A stretch of DNA of 35,031 bases from a virus (IMGVR_UViG_638341082_000010); one strand, 5' to 3'; shown: positions 1-11,687, counted from the first letter of the stretch. Numbers and translations are program-made. Notes: generated by a model from the letters alone, not told the origin.

Positions 1-1023
1 TTATGTGGATGAAATGTGGATGCCTCCTTTTAACGGATTAAGTGAAATTGCATCCTGGAGGAAATCAGGAGCGAGGTGCGCATAGGTCATAGTTTGCTGA
101 ATCGTGGCGTGCCCCATAATTCGCTGGAGCGTAAGTATATTTCCTCCATTAATCATAAAGTGAGCTGCAAAGGTATGGCGTAGAACATGTACAGCCTGTC
201 CCTTTGGTAGGTCTGGCTTAACACTGCGAAGCACCTTGCGATATTCCTCATAATTGACGTCAAACAAAAGGCCGGATTTCTTTGTTTTGATCTCACTAAC
301 AACCTCATCAGAGACAGGAATAATTCGAACTTTTCCGTTTTTAGTTTTGTTAAACGTCACGCGATTATTGATGATGTGTTCCGCGCGCAGATTTTTCGCT
401 TCTCCCCATCTCGCCCCAGTACTGAGACAAAGTAGCGTAATCCGCCGGGCATCACCGCTTACTGCATCCAGCAATTTGGCGATTTCTTCCGTGGTGAGGT
501 ACGTCATTTCGGGTGATTTTCGTTTCAAAGAGGGGAGGGCGCGGAGTGGATTTTCTCCGTGAAATTCCCCGGCATTTGCCAGGAGTGTAAACATTCCTCC
601 GAGATCCGACTCATCACGCCGAACAGTAGATTCTTTTACTCCTAAGGATAAACGGGAGCTTCGATAAGCTGCCATGAAACGAGCATTAATCTGGCTAACC
701 CTTGGATCATTCATTTCTTTGATGATTTTTTTCAATCTGGTTAGAACGCCGTTAGCATATGGCTTATTGCGTCCACCCAATTCCCACCATAATGGAAGCA
801 GATCTGAGAGATGACGTTGCTCTGTTGGCTTTTCAAGCCATTCCTTATCGTGCATGTGGCTGAGAACATAGCGCTCAAAGGCCACTGCATCTGCCTTTTT
901 CTTAAAAATCCGCTGAATCCGACGTCCACTTCGGCCACGCGGTCTAACATCCACTTTATACCGTCCACCATCGAGTGCCTTAATTGCCATTGGCAAGCCC
1001 TCCGGTGAAACGAGGAAAGACAT
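1..1023 (-). CDS. int: Tyrosine integrase (P2 Int-like)
   Basis: 340 aa; C-terminal catalytic motifs visible (GARWGEA, HVLRHTFA, YAHL); sits beside the repressor as in P2. Confidence 0.9.
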   Translation of the reverse strand: MSFLVSPEGLPMAIKALDGGRYKVDVRPRGRSGRRIQRIFKKKADAVAFERYVLSHMHDKEWLEKPTEQRHLSDLLPLWWELGGRNKPYANGVLTRLKKIIKEMNDPRVSQINARFMAAYRSSRLSLGVKESTVRRDESDLGGMFTLLANAGEFHGENPLRALPSLKRKSPEMTYLTTEEIAKLLDAVSGDARRITLLCLSTGARWGEAKNLRAEHIINNRVTFNKTKNGKVRIIPVSDEVVSEIKTKKSGLLFDVNYEEYRKVLRSVKPDLPKGQAVHVLRHTFAAHFMINGGNILTLQRIMGHATIQQTMTYAHLAPDFLQDAISLNPLKGGIHISST

Positions 1024-4656: not shown

Positions 4657-4776
4657 GTAACCACTATGTACACACAAAAAAACCGCTTGCCATGCCGCAA
4701 TCAGTCAGGTTACATTTCCGCTGCACCTCACAAAACGGGTGCCGGGTTTCGCAGCCTGCTGACAAACATAGCGCAC

Positions 4777-4797
4777 AACCGCGCCAGCGGTTTTTTT
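4777..4797 (+). terminator. Candidate intrinsic terminator (AACCGC-GCCA-GCGGTT then T7)
   Basis: GC stem followed by a 7-T run, read from sequence. Confidence 0.4.
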
Positions 4798-4976
4798 GTG
4801 CGTACTGTATCGCCACGTTTTTTTCGCACACGAATTATGGCGGGGCGTACGGGGCCGACTTCGGTCGGGCCGGGTTCTATGTTTGCCGGTACTGCGAACC
4901 TCGTACGTCTCGCCACCCACAGTTTCGCAGCTCTGGATGGTGAGTTTTCAAAACTTACACACATAGAGGCCACACC

Positions 4977-5279: not shown

Positions 5280-5645
5280 ATGATTCTCGCCAACGACTTT
5301 CTTGAATACCTGCTCAACACAGAGCGTGATCTTGCCGTTCGCGTGCGTGAACGTTATGACATGTACCTGAAATCCCTGCCTGTACCGCAGCTCGCTGACG
5401 GAAAGATTGTTATTGATGGTCGCTACATGATTGACAGCCACGAGGGAAATTACAGGCTTTACTGCATTGAAGGTGGCACTCCGTCCGTTATTGGCATTTA
5501 CCAGCGCCCATCCTCTGCAATCGTCGATGTGATTGCCGACAGCATCCGCATCACACATCGCCATGCCGACACAGAAGACACCGTGCTGGAAATTCAGCGG
5601 CTGGCTGCCGTTTGCCGTGACACCCTGAACGGTATGACGCAGTAA
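5280..5645 (+). CDS. Hypothetical protein immediately upstream of A
   Basis: 121-aa ORF with AAGAGGA RBS. Confidence 0.5.
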   Translation: MILANDFLEYLLNTERDLAVRVRERYDMYLKSLPVPQLADGKIVIDGRYMIDSHEGNYRLYCIEGGTPSVIGIYQRPSSAIVDVIADSIRITHRHADTEDTVLEIQRLAAVCRDTLNGMTQ

Positions 5646-5651
5646 ATCAGT

Positions 5652-8474
5652 ATGACGACAGAGTACATCAGGGACTGGCAACAACCGCGCCACGCAGTGG
5701 GGCGTGAAGGAACGGGGATCCCCGCACCTGAATCCGCGCTTTCCTCCTGGCTGGATGCCTACCGGGCAGAGAACGAGCGCCGACAGGAAAAGGCTGATGC
5801 GGCGTTCTCCGCCACGCCGCTGGGCAACCTGATTAATAAAAGCCTGGATGCACAGGAAAAACAGGACAAAACTATCACACTGGCAGGAGACGTCAGAAAA
5901 CAGGCACGCGGCGCGGTGGATGAAGCCATGGCCTCGCTGCGCCTGCTGCCGTCCTATCTGCGCGATCCGCTTATTCGCCACCTCTCCTTCCTGCGCAAAA
6001 AACAGGAAGCCGATCGCCGGAAAGGCAAAAAGAGCTGGCAGGCGGAACGCTATGCACGCGGAACCCTGCGCAAAATATTCGAACGTCTGGATCGCACTGA
6101 CGGACGCTGGCTGACACCGGGTTATCGCTCCCTTGCCGGACGCGAACGCCTGGACGATTTGCTTTACCTGCCGCAGCTCAACAAACACCAGATACAGACG
6201 CTGGCCACCATGACGGCGGCGATGTTCAGCAGCACCTTCGAAAAACTCTGCGATGGCTTTGGCGCGACCGATGGCGAACTGACCATGGATGTAACGCTGA
6301 AGACGTATCAGATGCTGGCCCGCATGGCGTTACACCTGCACATCATGCCTCCACATTATGACGCACTGACAACAGATAAAGACCGGAGGAACGAACCGGA
6401 CACGGAGCTGCTGCCGGGCGCAGTCCTTCGCCTGACCTGTGCGGAATGGTGGAAACGCAAACTGTGGCTGTTACGTTGCGAGTGGAGAGAAGAACAACTC
6501 CGCGCCGCCTGTCTGGTTTCCAGAAAAACATCGCCCTATCTGAGCCAGGGCGCATTAAGCGAGTTTCGCGCACAGCGCGAGAAAACACGCGATTTCCTGA
6601 AAAGTTTCATGCTGGAAAATGAAGACGGGTTCACGATTGATCTCGAGACGGTGTATTACGCGGGAGTAAGTAACCCGGTTCACCGTAAGGCAGAAATGAT
6701 GACCACCATGAAGGGGCTGGAACTTCTGGCCGAAGCCCGTGGCGACAGAGCGGTGTTTCTGACTGTCACCTGCCCGTCAAAATACCACGCAACAACGGAG
6801 AACGGTCATCCGAATCCCAAATGGAACGGGGCCACCATGCGTGACTCCAGCGATTACCTGGTTAACACGTTTTTTGCGGCGGTCCGCAAAAAACTGAACC
6901 GCGACGGTCTTCGCTGGTATGGCATCCGCACGGTGGAGCCTCACCATGACGGCACTGTGCACTGGCATATGATGGTCTTTGCACATCCGGACGAGATTGA
7001 AACCATCGTGTCCCACGTCTGCGATATTGCCATTCAGGAAGACCGCCACGAGCTGGGCGATGACATAACTCCGCGTTTTAAAGCGGAGTACGTCGACGGC
7101 TCAAAAGGCACGCCAACCAGCTACATCGCCACCTACATCGGAAAGAACCTGGACAGCCGCGCCGTGGATGGTATCGACCCGAAAACGGGCAAGCCACGCG
7201 TTGACCACGAAACCGGAAAATCAATGGCCGAGAGCGTGGAGCGCGCCATCGGCTGGGCGCGCCTTCACCGGGTCCGCCAGTTCCAGTTCTTTGGCATCCC
7301 CTCCCGTCAGGTGTGGCGTGAACTGCGCCGCCTTGCCAGCCAGATGGCACGCAACCCGGAAGGCCCGCAACAGCTGAAGGATGACGCAATGGATGCAGTG
7401 CTCGCTGCCGCTGATGCCGGGTGTTTTGCCTCCTACATTGAAAAACAGGGCGGCGTACTTGTTCCACGCAAAGACTACCTGATTCGCACCGCCTACGACC
7501 TCGCAGATGAGCTGAACGATTACGGCGAACAGAGCGTACAGATTTACGGGATCTGGTCACCACTCATCGGGGAGTCTTCCCGTGTGTGCACACATCCGGA
7601 TAACTGGAAGCTGGTAAGACGTAAACCGGAAGCGGAAGACAGCGCCCGCGAAAATGGTTTTGACCTTCAGGGCGGCCCTGCCGCCCCTTGGACTCGTGGC
7701 AATAACTGTCCCCGTGTACAGGAAACGGACAACAACGGGACAGAACAGCCGGAAGAACGGCCAGCACCGTGGCCGCAGCTCCCTGACGGCGTTGAAGTGA
7801 ACGAATGGATGCGCTCACTGAAACGGCACGAACGCCGGGCGCTGATGCGTTCGCTGCGTGACAAGCAGGCAAAAAACAGCAGTGATGAAATGCAGAACTG
7901 GACACAGAGCCGCAAACAGCCACGGCCTTTGCCTGATAACCACGAATTACTCGCTAAAGAATGGCGGGAATCTGCCGAATCTCTCGGCCTGCATATCGGT
8001 GAACAGCAGATGCAGCACCTGTTACGGGGCGGCAGCCTGTACGTTGACGGCAGCATCATTGCACCACAGGGATTTGAAATTGTACGCAAACCGGATACCC
8101 GCCCGGACAGCCGAATCACGCAGCTCTGGCAGCACCTGAGCCGTAATCACGGCGTAAGCAGCACGGAGATCCGCCATAACCCGGTCGCCAGCTATCTGGA
8201 ACAGCTGGGGGCATCAGACCCCGAAGCCGCCGCACGTCTGGCATCCACACTTCAGCAGGACCAGAACACCATGAAAACCCCCGTTACCGTGCTTTCTGAC
8301 ATGCTGCGCGCCATTCGTGACGCAGAGCACGCACAGAGAATCAGTGAAACAACTGAACGCGCCCGCCGCAAAGCAGACCTGCTGCGGGGTGGCCTGACCA
8401 GTAGAAACAAAAAACAGACAGAAACGGGATTCACAAATCCCGTAAATGAGCAAAAAACGCGCCGCGATATATGA
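5652..8474 (+). CDS. A: Rolling-circle replication initiation endonuclease (P2 gpA family) with a long C-terminal extension
   Basis: 940 aa; HUH-type motif VHWHMMVF and paired catalytic tyrosines YIATYIGKN in the central domain. Confidence 0.9.
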   Translation: MTTEYIRDWQQPRHAVGREGTGIPAPESALSSWLDAYRAENERRQEKADAAFSATPLGNLINKSLDAQEKQDKTITLAGDVRKQARGAVDEAMASLRLLPSYLRDPLIRHLSFLRKKQEADRRKGKKSWQAERYARGTLRKIFERLDRTDGRWLTPGYRSLAGRERLDDLLYLPQLNKHQIQTLATMTAAMFSSTFEKLCDGFGATDGELTMDVTLKTYQMLARMALHLHIMPPHYDALTTDKDRRNEPDTELLPGAVLRLTCAEWWKRKLWLLRCEWREEQLRAACLVSRKTSPYLSQGALSEFRAQREKTRDFLKSFMLENEDGFTIDLETVYYAGVSNPVHRKAEMMTTMKGLELLAEARGDRAVFLTVTCPSKYHATTENGHPNPKWNGATMRDSSDYLVNTFFAAVRKKLNRDGLRWYGIRTVEPHHDGTVHWHMMVFAHPDEIETIVSHVCDIAIQEDRHELGDDITPRFKAEYVDGSKGTPTSYIATYIGKNLDSRAVDGIDPKTGKPRVDHETGKSMAESVERAIGWARLHRVRQFQFFGIPSRQVWRELRRLASQMARNPEGPQQLKDDAMDAVLAAADAGCFASYIEKQGGVLVPRKDYLIRTAYDLADELNDYGEQSVQIYGIWSPLIGESSRVCTHPDNWKLVRRKPEAEDSARENGFDLQGGPAAPWTRGNNCPRVQETDNNGTEQPEERPAPWPQLPDGVEVNEWMRSLKRHERRALMRSLRDKQAKNSSDEMQNWTQSRKQPRPLPDNHELLAKEWRESAESLGLHIGEQQMQHLLRGGSLYVDGSIIAPQGFEIVRKPDTRPDSRITQLWQHLSRNHGVSSTEIRHNPVASYLEQLGASDPEAAARLASTLQQDQNTMKTPVTVLSDMLRAIRDAEHAQRISETTERARRKADLLRGGLTSRNKKQTETGFTNPVNEQKTRRDI

Positions 8475-8519
8475 AGCGCGCACAAAACAGGCGAAAACGG
8501 GATTTAAAAATCCCGTAAA
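8422..8519. repeat. Two copies of a 20-bp palindrome (ACGGGATT-N4-AATCCCGT and ACGGGATTT-AA-AAATCCCGT) inside a roughly 40-bp direct repeat
   Basis: Read from sequence; first copy lies in the last codons of A, second about 35 bp upstream of the parM start. Confidence 0.5.
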
Positions 8520-8550
8520 CGATTAATTAATCAACATAAGGAAAAGCGAC

Positions 8551-9510
8551 ATGAAAATTTGTATCGACGACGGCTCCACCAACATCAAGCTGGCATGGAC
8601 TGAGAACGGCGAACGCCGCAACGCCATCAGCCCGAACAGCTTCAAGTCGGAATGGTCTGCGCCGTTCGGTGGCACGCAGCCCGCGAACTACATGCTTGAT
8701 GGCGTGCGCTATGGTTTTGATCCGGTCAGCGATCGCTTTGTCCAGACGACCGACACGCAATACCAGTACAGCGATGTGAATGTAATCGCCATTCACCACG
8801 CGCTGGTCAAATCAGGCATCACACCACAGGAAGTGGATGTGGTTGTTACCCTGCCACTGAGCGAGTATTTCGACACAAACGCACAGCCGGACATGGCCAA
8901 CATCAACCGCAAAAAAGCGAACGTTATGCGCCCGGTGGAGTACCAGAACGGCGAAGCATTCACTATCCGTAACGTGCGGGTTATGCCTGAATCCATTCCG
9001 GCTGGCTTTAAAGCACTGGCTGACATGAGTCCGTTTGAATCCCTGCTGATTGTGGATTTAGGCGGAACCACGCTGGATGTGGCAAAGGTTCAGGGGCAAC
9101 TGGCAGGTATCAGCCAGGTGTTTTGCGATCCACACGTAGGCGTCTCCCTGATGGCCGGTGCCGTGCTGTCGGTGATGGCCGCTAACGGTATGCGTACCAG
9201 TCACCACATCGCCAATACCATTATCGAACATCGCCATGATGAAGCCTGGTTGCGCCAACACATCCACAATGACGCGCATTACGCCAGCCTGATGGCGGTT
9301 ATTCGTGAAAAGGAAGAAACACTGAAACAACGCGTGATCCGCGCGCTGGCGGGTTTTTCGGGTTACGGGCGGGTGATGGTTGTCGGTGGCGGGGCGGAGA
9401 TTGTGGCACCCGCTATCCGCGAAGCCTGCGGAGTTAATGCGACTTTCATCGCGGACGGGGTGCCACAGTTTGCTCTGGTTAATGGGCTGTACGCAATGGA
9501 CAAGGAGTAA
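8551..9510 (+). CDS. parM: Actin-like plasmid segregation ATPase ParM/StbA
   Basis: 319 aa; N-terminus MKICIDDGSTNIKLAW and internal VMPESIPAG, DLGGTTLD, VMVVGGGAE, LVNGLY match the R1 ParM/StbA pattern. Confidence 0.85.
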   Translation: MKICIDDGSTNIKLAWTENGERRNAISPNSFKSEWSAPFGGTQPANYMLDGVRYGFDPVSDRFVQTTDTQYQYSDVNVIAIHHALVKSGITPQEVDVVVTLPLSEYFDTNAQPDMANINRKKANVMRPVEYQNGEAFTIRNVRVMPESIPAGFKALADMSPFESLLIVDLGGTTLDVAKVQGQLAGISQVFCDPHVGVSLMAGAVLSVMAANGMRTSHHIANTIIEHRHDEAWLRQHIHNDAHYASLMAVIREKEETLKQRVIRALAGFSGYGRVMVVGGGAEIVAPAIREACGVNATFIADGVPQFALVNGLYAMDKE

Positions 9511-9514
9511 ACCA

Positions 9515-9829
9515 ATGACGACACCAACCAGACGGATAAGTTTCTATCTGAAGCCAGTCGCCGTCAATAGTGAACGGGAGGCGTGTAATTACCTCGACAG
9601 CCTGCCAGCCTCTGAACGCAGCCGCGCGCAACGCGCGGCCTTTCTGGCCGGGCTGGCACTCATAAAACGCGATCCTGCATTTGCCTATTGGTTGGCCGAA
9701 TGGCCGGAAGAAGGAGCTGCGCCAGCCAAGAATAATATTCAGAGTAAATATGCCAGCACACCTGCCACCGGAAGCAATCACAGCACTAGCGAGATAAGAA
9801 AGAACATTCAGTCATTTTTCCCAGAGTGA
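9515..9829 (+). CDS. parR: ParR/StbB-like centromere-binding adaptor
   Basis: 104 aa from ATG after an AAGGAG RBS; N-terminus RRISFYLKP...LDSLPASERSRAQRAAFLAGLAL resembles R1 ParR. Confidence 0.75.
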   Translation: MTTPTRRISFYLKPVAVNSEREACNYLDSLPASERSRAQRAAFLAGLALIKRDPAFAYWLAEWPEEGAAPAKNNIQSKYASTPATGSNHSTSEIRKNIQSFFPE

Positions 9830-9848
9830 AAACAGGAGAGGAGCATCT

Positions 9849-10310
9849 ATGGCAACTATCCCCAAAAAATGGTTACAACGCAAAATTGCAGACCTTGAAT
9901 CGTGTCGTGAAGACATCCCGTTTGGCCTTGATGAAAACGATCACAATATGTTAATCGCACTGAAAATCGCACTCACATCGCTGGAAGCAGAGGCAGTTAT
10001 GTTCTGTATATCAGGACAAAATGTAGATTCAGAAGAACATGTATCAACCAGCAAAGCGGTTGTTGATGCCTGGGTTGAAGAATGGAATCAGGTTGACGGA
10101 AGTCCTGGCGAACCACTGTACAAAACTATGCCACTCTACTATCACGCTGCCTTGCCAGCGCCGGTAGTGCCGGAAGAAGCAACTCCGGAAAACGTAGAAA
10201 TGCTCTCTGGCTATGTTTCCACGTACAAATTAACCGATAGCGAGCGCGATATTGCTGCCGAAATATGGAACGCCTGCCGCGCCGCTATGCTTCATGGGAA
10301 AGGAGAGTGA
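9849..10310 (+). CDS. Hypothetical protein, lower-GC cargo
   Basis: 153-aa ORF with AGGAGAGGAG RBS; no recognisable motif. Confidence 0.55.
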   Translation: MATIPKKWLQRKIADLESCREDIPFGLDENDHNMLIALKIALTSLEAEAVMFCISGQNVDSEEHVSTSKAVVDAWVEEWNQVDGSPGEPLYKTMPLYYHAALPAPVVPEEATPENVEMLSGYVSTYKLTDSERDIAAEIWNACRAAMLHGKGE

Positions 10311-10311
10311 T

Positions 10312-10575
10312 ATGGCAACTTTAACAAAAAAAGAACGGGCATGGTTGAACGAATTACAGGACGTTCTTGATCGCTGCCCATCACCGAAAAAAATTGGTTT
10401 TTACACCATTGGCGATAAAAGCATTTACCTGTATGACCTGCGCCGCATGGATGAAATCATGGAGGCTCTTGATAATCGTTCGTCAATGGATTGGTGTGTT
10501 GCTGTCCATGATATGAATGCAGGGTTTGATGAAAAGATTTTGTTCCCCTCATCAGTTGAAAGCACAGCAGGATAA
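10312..10575 (+). CDS. Hypothetical protein, lower-GC cargo, coupled to the previous gene
   Basis: 87 aa from ATG at 10312 with AGGAGAG RBS, 1 bp after the upstream stop. Confidence 0.5.
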   Translation: MATLTKKERAWLNELQDVLDRCPSPKKIGFYTIGDKSIYLYDLRRMDEIMEALDNRSSMDWCVAVHDMNAGFDEKILFPSSVESTAG

Positions 10576-11060: not shown

Positions 11061-11162
11061 GGCGAAGCAGCAGACAAGCGAAGCGCGTCAGCGATACGGC
11101 ACCTTGCCGACCATACTTCATAAGTGCAAAATACGAGCAAAGAAATCAATGGAGGCTGTCTT

Positions 11163-11687
11163 ATGGTCATTAATTACAAGCAGTTAAGAGAAAAACGGGA
11201 GCAGGTAAAGGAGAGCTTTCGCCGCAATGAAGATCTGACCCCGCTTGTACGCCTTGCCCAGGGCATTGTTGATGCTTATGAAATCTCGCTGGAGCTGCCA
11301 TCACAGACCTGGACAGATAGCGACGGTAATCGCCAGCATTACGTTTCATGCGGACTGGAAGCAGCCGAAGGATTTCGCAGAATGCCTTTATCTCAGATCC
11401 CTGCCGCTACCCCCAAAGCACGGGGCTGCAATGATGAGCGAAAACTGACTTTTAGTATTGAAACGGTGGTTGACGACACACCTGGCGAAGTCGCGTTCGT
11501 GCACACTCCTGTTTCGATCGCAATGTATAACGATGAAATACAGGTTCGCGTTAATAATAATATCGTGCCACTTAAAGAAGGTAATTCACCATACACCACC
11601 GTTTGTGAAGCCATTCAATATTACGTTCTCTCTGAAATTGATAATCTCAAGCCTGACGGCACCCAGAAAATGGTTCAACTCTGGTAA
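11163..11687 (+). CDS. Hypothetical cargo protein between the cos region and the portal gene
   Basis: 174 aa from ATG with GGAGG RBS; lower GC than backbone; convergent with Q. Confidence 0.5.
   Translation: MVINYKQLREKREQVKESFRRNEDLTPLVRLAQGIVDAYEISLELPSQTWTDSDGNRQHYVSCGLEAAEGFRRMPLSQIPAATPKARGCNDERKLTFSIETVVDDTPGEVAFVHTPVSIAMYNDEIQVRVNNNIVPLKEGNSPYTTVCEAIQYYVLSEIDNLKPDGTQKMVQLW

Follow-up and report, generated by a model that had tools for sequence, protein, structure and literature searches.

What use does a phage that integrates into the chromosome and replicates as a rolling circle have for a plasmid segregation machine, and is there any interaction between such a machine and the related ParMRC systems that IncF plasmids carry? 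These two questions can be addressed by experiment, and both are raised by a 35,031-nucleotide stretch of viral DNA (IMGVR_UViG_638341082_000010; "the window" hereafter denotes this whole stretch). Directly after the replication gene A (5652-8474, + strand), the window carries a gene for an actin-like segregation ATPase, parM (8551-9510, +), and, beginning 4 nt past its stop codon, a gene for a 104-amino-acid adaptor, parR (9515-9829, +), with two inverted-repeat boxes immediately upstream of parM. The cassette is very common, is under strong purifying selection, and is kept across several enterobacterial genera, which makes it very probable that the phage has some use for it. We argue below that it may serve to segregate a transient circular form of the phage genome.

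Identification of a ParMRC module next to the replication gene

The initial annotation had read these two genes as a type II (ParM/ParR) partition cassette inside an integrative P2-like prophage, and the Pfam, PHROG, PDB, and BLASTP matches all support it. The 319-amino-acid ParM matches the Pfam family StbA_N (PF06406) with an E value of 1.8e-82 (275 bits against a cut-off of 24.6) and the ParM C-terminal domain (PF21523) with one of 1.5e-67 (227 bits; cut-off 27.4). It falls into PHROG 691 ("partition protein") and matches the solved structure of R1 ParM (1mwk) from end to end over residues 2-316 (E value, 8.4e-93), at 47% identity to the R1 protein (alignment A2). ParM models of NCBIfam were matched only below threshold, an uninformative result that contradicts nothing. 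ParR, which starts with an ATG at 9515, matches Plasmid_stab_B (PF10784), the StbB/ParR family of R1/NR1, with an E value of 3.8e-25 (88 bits; cut-off 25), belongs to PHROG 2515, and finds R1 ParR from an IncF plasmid in BLASTP at 1e-16. Both of the families on which the annotation stood or fell, ParM/StbA and ParR, are strongly matched. A profile built from 35 ParRs additionally matches the structure of pB171 ParR (2jd3; E value, 4.9e-4). The AlphaFold2 model of the ParR monomer, computed from the 35-sequence alignment, is of low confidence (predicted local distance difference test score of 64.5); it places helices at residues 20-29, 32-52, 54-61, and 88-101, leaves the N-terminal strand unmodelled, and returned only meaningless matches in a Foldseek search against the PDB, and for these reasons we take the fold of ParR from the profile match to 2jd3.

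The neighbouring gene A encodes a 940-amino-acid rolling-circle initiator (Pfam Phage_GPA, 1.4e-128; PHROG 91, "nicking at origin of replication"), and the placement of the cassette directly after it, as first annotated, is borne out by the coordinates. As judged from the sequence, the identities of ParM and ParR are secure, and together with the upstream site they appear to make up a complete R1-type (type II) ParMRC segregation module.

A two-box site upstream of parM

Two direct repeats of 42 nt, 83% identical to each other, lie at 8408-8449 and 8481-8522, and each encloses a box of 20 nt. Box 1 (8424-8443, or -127 to -108 from the parM ATG), which reads ACGGGATT-CACA-AATCCCGT (8+4+8 nt) and has a GGG-N10-CCC core, sits inside the last ~17 codons of gene A; box 2 (8497-8516, or -54 to -35) reads ACGGGATTT-AA-AAATCCCGT (9+2+9 nt) and is found 73 bp further on. 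Where the initial annotation saw two copies of a perfect 20-bp palindrome, there are indeed two palindromic 20-nt boxes, but their arms of 8-9 bp surround centres of 4 and 2 nt, respectively, and these centres differ. We propose that the first repeat copy is the upstream ParR-binding half of a parC-like site and that the second is a parM-proximal ParR-binding site that doubles as an operator. The 53-nt core between the boxes (8444-8496) holds the stop codon of gene A (8472-8474) and A-rich repeats of the CAAAAAAC type, and the parM leader that follows the second repeat (8523-8550, +) holds a TTAATCAA motif at 8527-8534 and a Shine-Dalgarno sequence, AAGGA, at 8538-8542. The TTAATCAA motif is also present in related Hafnia and Plesiomonas phages. 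As a side observation, the Phage_GPA domain of Pfam covers only residues 179-503 of the 940 residues of gpA, and the long C-terminal extension of the protein reaches into the parC-like region, gpA ending between the two boxes.

Several lines of evidence set these boxes apart from chance repeats. The 35-kb window holds no third copy at up to 3 mismatches, and two box matches were obtained in 0 of 100 shuffles. The GGG-N10-CCC cores of the window (-125 and -52 relative to the parM ATG) recur at -128 and -55 in the Hafnia phage and at -131 and -59 in the Plesiomonas phage, where a spacing of 72-73 bp is retained despite diverged flanking sequence. A pair of such cores 70-75 bp apart arises in a fraction of at most 1.5e-5 of 200,000 shuffles for each of the three upstream regions. 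The arrangement of two box groups immediately upstream of parM is thus kept in phages of three host genera, which lends comparative support to the earlier suggestion that the palindromes may be an operator or centromere.

The layout is nonetheless not that of R1 parC, in which, as read from an IncF plasmid, A-rich iterons containing CCC recur every 11 bp in two groups round a promoter core. What the phage and R1 sites have in common is the presence of A-rich, CCC-containing repeats in two groups upstream of parM, an AAATCCC half-site (the half-site AAATCCCGT of the boxes resembling the R1 iteron AAAACCCAA), and a CATAAGGA element in the leader before the start codon. They differ in that the phage has two inverted pairs with four half-sites in place of ten direct 11-bp iterons (2 x 5), in that its box 1 lies in the coding end of gene A, and in that its 53-nt core, which is analogous in position to the promoter core of R1 parC, has no detectable consensus promoter. 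Similar direct repeats were also read by eye upstream of parM in two plasmid relatives.

The palindromes could alternatively act as hairpins in RNA or DNA, in transcript processing or stability or as a minus-strand terminator, rather than as sites for ParR, and such a function could coexist with any of the readings weighed below. Each of the window palindromes folds at about -11 kcal/mol (z of -3.6 to -4.1), and box 1 has a T-rich tail on the minus strand with a terminator-like score. Their Hafnia and Plesiomonas equivalents, however, keep only a 3-4-bp GGG/CCC closure round a 10-nt loop (z of -0.1 to -2.4), the P88 box carries an uncompensated arm change (GGGACT), and the locus shows neither a T-run on the + strand nor a minus-strand gene that converges there. 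Since the phages share the GGG-N10-CCC spacing but differ in how stably the hairpins fold, the constraint looks like that on a duplex protein-binding site. Conserved RNA hairpins were rejected as the main reading on this ground, and we regard a hairpin function in place of ParR binding as most improbable.

Signs of function in ParM and ParR

In an alignment of the window ParM with R1 ParM and four diverged phage ParMs, the actin-fold motifs are invariant, namely, phosphate-1 (DDGSTNIK), the catalytic motif (PESIPAG), phosphate-2 (DLGGTTLD), and the adenosine motif (GGGAE), with residues D6, D7, G8, S9, T10, K13, E147, D169, G171-T174, and G279-A282 identical in all. Comparison of the window parM with copies from P88, from a circular Escherichia coli record, from Escherichia albertii, and from Salmonella gives ratios of nonsynonymous to synonymous substitution rates (dN/dS) of 0.03-0.14. 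We considered a decayed relic as an explanation of the locus, and these ratios and the intact motifs rule it out.

ParR presents a different picture, forming in Escherichia dozens of clusters at 90% identity, with 50-78% identity to the window ParR, compared with about four such clusters for ParM. In the window protein, a predicted N-terminal DNA-binding domain (residues 1-66, with the strand RRISFYLKP) is followed by a variable linker (67-96) and the C-terminal tail RKNIQSFFPE. Across 35 variants, N97, I98, F102, and P103 are invariant, R6-P14 and the helices are invariant or nearly so, and the ~30-residue linker varies freely; the tail follows the consensus (K/R)xNIxx(F/L)FPE and aligns with the R1 tail KKNAMKLIN. 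In R1 ParR, a flexible linker joins a DNA-binding domain to a ParM-binding peptide at the C terminus, and the pattern of conservation in the phage proteins fits this layout. Taken with the intact motifs, the purifying selection, and the conserved cis-architecture, the conservation of ParR makes the cassette look functional.

The cassette as part of the P88-like backbone

The window has the gene set and gene order of P2-type phages and represents a P88-like (Xuanwuvirus, Peduoviridae) prophage; its elements include a tyrosine integrase (1-1023, minus strand), a C-type helix-turn-helix repressor, Cox, gpA, a portal protein, and a terminal DNA methylase. An att site was not found inside the window. 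The DNA of the cassette region is 94-98% identical to that of Escherichia phage P88, Citrobacter phage PhiSM, and other Xuanwuvirus members. The initial annotation regarded the cassette as unexpected in an integrating myovirus, a view that does not survive the survey: in the P88-like lineage the cassette is fixed, and 1303 of 5426 complete E. coli genomes (24%) carry it, among them members of the O157:H7, ST131, and UTI89 lineages. At a coverage of at least 80%, the 3' kb of this type of gpA is found in 1355 of the E. coli genomes and the cassette in 1277, which means that ~95% of the phages with this gpA type also carry the cassette. Its GC content is backbone-like, as had been annotated, with 55.5% in parM and 53.0% in parR compared with 57.4% in gene A and 53.0% in the window, and parM matches gene A both in GC and in GC at third codon positions.

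P2-like prophages of Hafnia, Plesiomonas, Serratia, and Enterobacter have the same gene order (gpA, parM, a PF10784 parR, variable genes, and then ogr/portal/terminase), and their ParMs share 54-62% identity with that of the window (62% in Hafnia and Plesiomonas). These diverged relatives came from a protein search combined with contig look-ups; a scan of genome contigs with the single ParM protein found only copies of 97-99% identity, in E. albertii, Salmonella, and an assembly labelled Vagococcus. Neighbour joining places the phage ParMs in a group of their own, separate from those of R1 and other plasmids, the joining branch being short and the tree being without support values. The three ParM homologues of 49-53% identity whose context we examined lie on plasmids, an integrative and conjugative element, or an integrated plasmid. 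A recent insertion from a plasmid, which was entertained as the origin of the cassette, is ruled out by the backbone GC, the ~95% linkage to the gpA type, and the phage-specific ParM cluster that spans five genera. Judging from composition, linkage, and this cluster, we conclude that the cassette is a backbone component in the P88-like (Xuanwuvirus) branch of the P2-like phages.

The backbone appears to give way to accessory genes immediately beyond parR. Three open reading frames on the + strand between parR and the portal gene (9849-10310, 10312-10575, and 11124-11687) have a GC content of 42-47% and no match in Pfam, and neither these three products nor ParM and ParR have a match in PADLOC. 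The low GC and the lack of Pfam or PADLOC assignments place the start of the cargo of the variable gpA-gpQ hotspot, described by Rousset 2022, after parR. The three frames, two of which belong to PHROG families of unknown function (5117 and 1714), occupy this hotspot, which often holds anti-phage systems, and they are candidate cargo. The slot right after parR is taken by a HicAB toxin-antitoxin pair in the Serratia prophage (contig positions 7450-8084) and by a KAP-family NTPase in the Enterobacter prophage (7411-8757), neighbours that are consistent with defence or addiction cargo starting immediately 3' of parR. We also observed that parR is a mosaic in Escherichia prophages, with most of the variation within the ~30-residue linker, and that Megablast matches to relatives break off inside the gene, near 9567, 9660, 9705, and 9711. 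This suggests recombination at the edge of the hotspot that reaches into parR.

A transient circle as the likely substrate

Across the 5426 genomes, the cassette occupies 1441 chromosomal places and 2 plasmid places, and it always adjoins a gene annotated as a replication endonuclease. A probe spanning attP has a contiguous match in none of these genomes, with the proviso that a circle recorded from att onward would look split as well. PLSDB has one circular record of this kind, NZ_CP148288.1, a "plasmid" of 34,461 bp that constitutes a whole P88-like phage genome with its integrase. It ends exactly at the att junction, the point at which matches of chromosomal prophages to the attP-spanning probe stop, as would be the case if an assembler had resolved an excised circle, and so it represents an excised phage circle joined at att. 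Both P88 and PhiSM are active, excising phages. The initial annotation had offered an episomal phase, a segregated replicating intermediate, or a repurposed function such as exclusion: the genome data oppose a stable plasmid state as the norm, and sequence by itself does not separate an episome from a segregated intermediate or from exclusion.

Because the phage is almost always integrated, the likely substrate of the module is a transient circle. In the mechanism that we propose, ParR dimers would bind the two GGG-N10-CCC boxes just upstream of parM, and this binding would probably also regulate the expression of parMR. The conserved C-terminal tail of ParR would capture the ends of ATP-driven ParM filaments, which would then push DNA molecules bearing the parC-like site apart. 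These molecules would most likely be circular extrachromosomal phage genomes, present after infection and before integration, after excision, or during gpA-driven rolling-circle replication. Segregation would give both daughter cells a copy before integration or lysis, and the module would be idle in the integrated prophage. The binding of ParR to the boxes, the timing of expression, and the biological role are inferred, and we give segregation of the transient circular genome, as the role of the cassette, about an even chance of being correct.

Several points weigh against this role. In P2, excision goes together with commitment to lysis, and the genome is not replicated as long as it is repressed, so that a low-copy intermediate in need of segregation is hard to place in the life cycle. 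The site has only two boxes, i.e., four half-sites, compared with the ten iterons of R1, and could be mainly an operator and a poor centromere. Phages of Serratia and Enterobacter have a different inverted-repeat arrangement upstream of the gene. A scan of positions 8200-10000 detected neither a consensus sigma-70 promoter nor a + strand terminator between gene A and parM, and a weak candidate in the leader (-35 TTTAAA, -10 ATTAAT) was seen by eye only and is unsupported by the scan; for this reason, parMR may be read through from the early operon, be transcribed from a weak promoter of its own, or both. The searchable literature yielded no experimental test of the cassette.

Other uses of the same machinery have to be weighed against segregation of a transient circle. 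ParM filaments could position or spread replicating phage DNA for replication or packaging, with no part in inheritance. P2-type replication yields monomeric circles, a point that we count for such a lytic organiser, and the lack of a detected + strand terminator between gene A and parM makes early lytic cotranscription possible; a precedent exists in AlpC/AlpA of prophage CGP3 (PMC4446434). The window ParM is, however, a close homologue of the R1-type proteins, at the identity given above, and the demonstrated activity of that family is the bipolar segregation of low-copy DNA, so that we consider a purely lytic role rather unlikely. A facultative phage-plasmid lifestyle, in which the cassette would let P88-like phages persist stably as low-copy circular plasmids instead of integrating, was raised as a possibility by Pfeifer 2021 and Rousset 2022, and the circular PLSDB record of 34.5 kb speaks for it. 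Upkeep outside the chromosome in lysogens is not what the genomes display: the imbalance between chromosomal and plasmid places and the want of a contiguous attP tell against it, the integrase, C, and Cox are all present, and the other plasmid matches are prophages within records of 228 kb to 1.4 Mb. The lone circular contig could itself derive from excised phage DNA in the sequenced culture, and we hold this lifestyle to be unlikely.

Between integration and lysis there might also be a third lifestyle, so far unrecognised, in which the circular genome is kept in a carrier (pseudolysogenic) state and actively segregated by way of a minimal two-box centromere that runs into the end of the replication gene. 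We think this distinctly unlikely; were it true, the cassette could incidentally engage in partition cross-talk with IncF resistance and virulence plasmids of the R1 type. Such plasmids would be the very target if the cassette were competitive cargo, with ParR and ParM disturbing the partition of incoming R1-type IncF plasmids or of related phages by incompatibility or exclusion. Potential targets abound in E. coli, as 1836 PLSDB records match R1 ParM, 1623 of them at 99% identity or more; the tail of ParR and the half-site of the boxes resemble those of R1, and the gpA-gpQ defence hotspot (Rousset 2022) borders on the cassette. Yet the PADLOC search was negative, the GC content is that of the backbone and unlike that of the hotspot cargo, and the tight linkage to the gpA type and the conservation across genera likewise speak against such a weapon. 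Specificity appears to differ too, the DNA-reading strand being RRISFYL in the phage and RTIAFKL in R1, and inverted boxes facing direct iterons. Competitive cargo is accordingly a very unlikely account of the cassette.

Comparison with known systems

Among the closest known systems is R1/NR1 ParMRC (parA/stb), which shares with the phage module the order of cis-site, parM, and parR, the nucleotide-binding motifs, an N-terminal ParR domain that is 45% identical, and a comparable basic-hydrophobic C-terminal tail. The replicons differ, R1 being a low-copy theta plasmid and the phage an integrating, rolling-circle myovirus. Within the phages, the same cassette is present in P88 (NC_026014, gp17/gp18), PhiSM, and other Xuanwuvirus members, with ParMs 95-99% identical in tblastn and with matching boxes and position. 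The window ParR shares no more than 52% identity with P88 gp18, mostly because of substitutions in the linker and helices, and the downstream genes of P88 differ from those of the window because they lie within the variable hotspot. Outside this group, the phage collection has a single R1-type ParM, the StbA-type protein of the P1-like phage-plasmid D6, at 47.8% identity; D6, unlike the window phage, is a 91-kb plasmid prophage in which a partition system is expected.

The closest functional precedent is the srpMRC system of the SXT/R391 integrative and conjugative elements, which was shown to stabilise the excised form of its element as well as a mini-F plasmid deficient in partition; its SrpR protein binds to repeats located upstream of srpM (Carraro et al. 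2015, PMC4489591). It resembles the phage cassette in being a type II system in a normally integrated element that replicates by rolling circle once excised. It differs in being distant in sequence, in residing in a conjugative host element, and in that SrpR lacks a recognisable ParR domain, whereas the phage ParR belongs to PF10784. A second precedent is the AlpC/AlpA/alpS system of the Corynebacterium glutamicum prophage CGP3, which supports the replication of phage DNA after induction (PMC4446434, PMC5539076). Here again, a prophage encodes an actin-like protein and a DNA-binding adaptor that acts at upstream sites; AlpC is divergent, actinobacterial, and not of the R1 type, and the effect is on replication efficiency, partition not having been demonstrated.

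Neither the cassette nor the episomal hypothesis is new, as both can be found in databases and two papers. RefSeq records of P88, PhiSM, and other Xuanwuvirus members annotate the genes as "plasmid segregation protein ParM" and "partition protein," PHROGs has both families, and plasmid-like maintenance was proposed by Rousset 2022 and Pfeifer 2021; Magaziner et al. 2019 list the PhiSM gene as a "fitness" factor. The present analysis contributes the arrangement of the cis-site as two boxes and the retention of this arrangement across genera, the pattern of ParR conservation by domain, the phage-specific ParM cluster, and the quantitative linkage to the gpA type. These are refinements and not a new kind of system.

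Further observations

The assembly labelled Vagococcus sp. WN89Y (NZ_JBQPOM010000071.1), nominally a Firmicute and met in the contig scan, has a 226-kb contig whose ParM shares 97% identity with the E. coli prophage protein. Most likely, the contig stems from enterobacterial contamination or the assembly carries the wrong label. Upstream of an open reading frame at 5280-5645 and of gene A, the window carries two Rfam matches at gathering score that lie side by side, one to the isrK Hfq-binding small RNA (4723-4797, +; 65 bits) and one to the C4 antisense RNA (4833-4920, +; 83.5 bits). This region is probably an antisense-controlled anti-repressor or immunity module.

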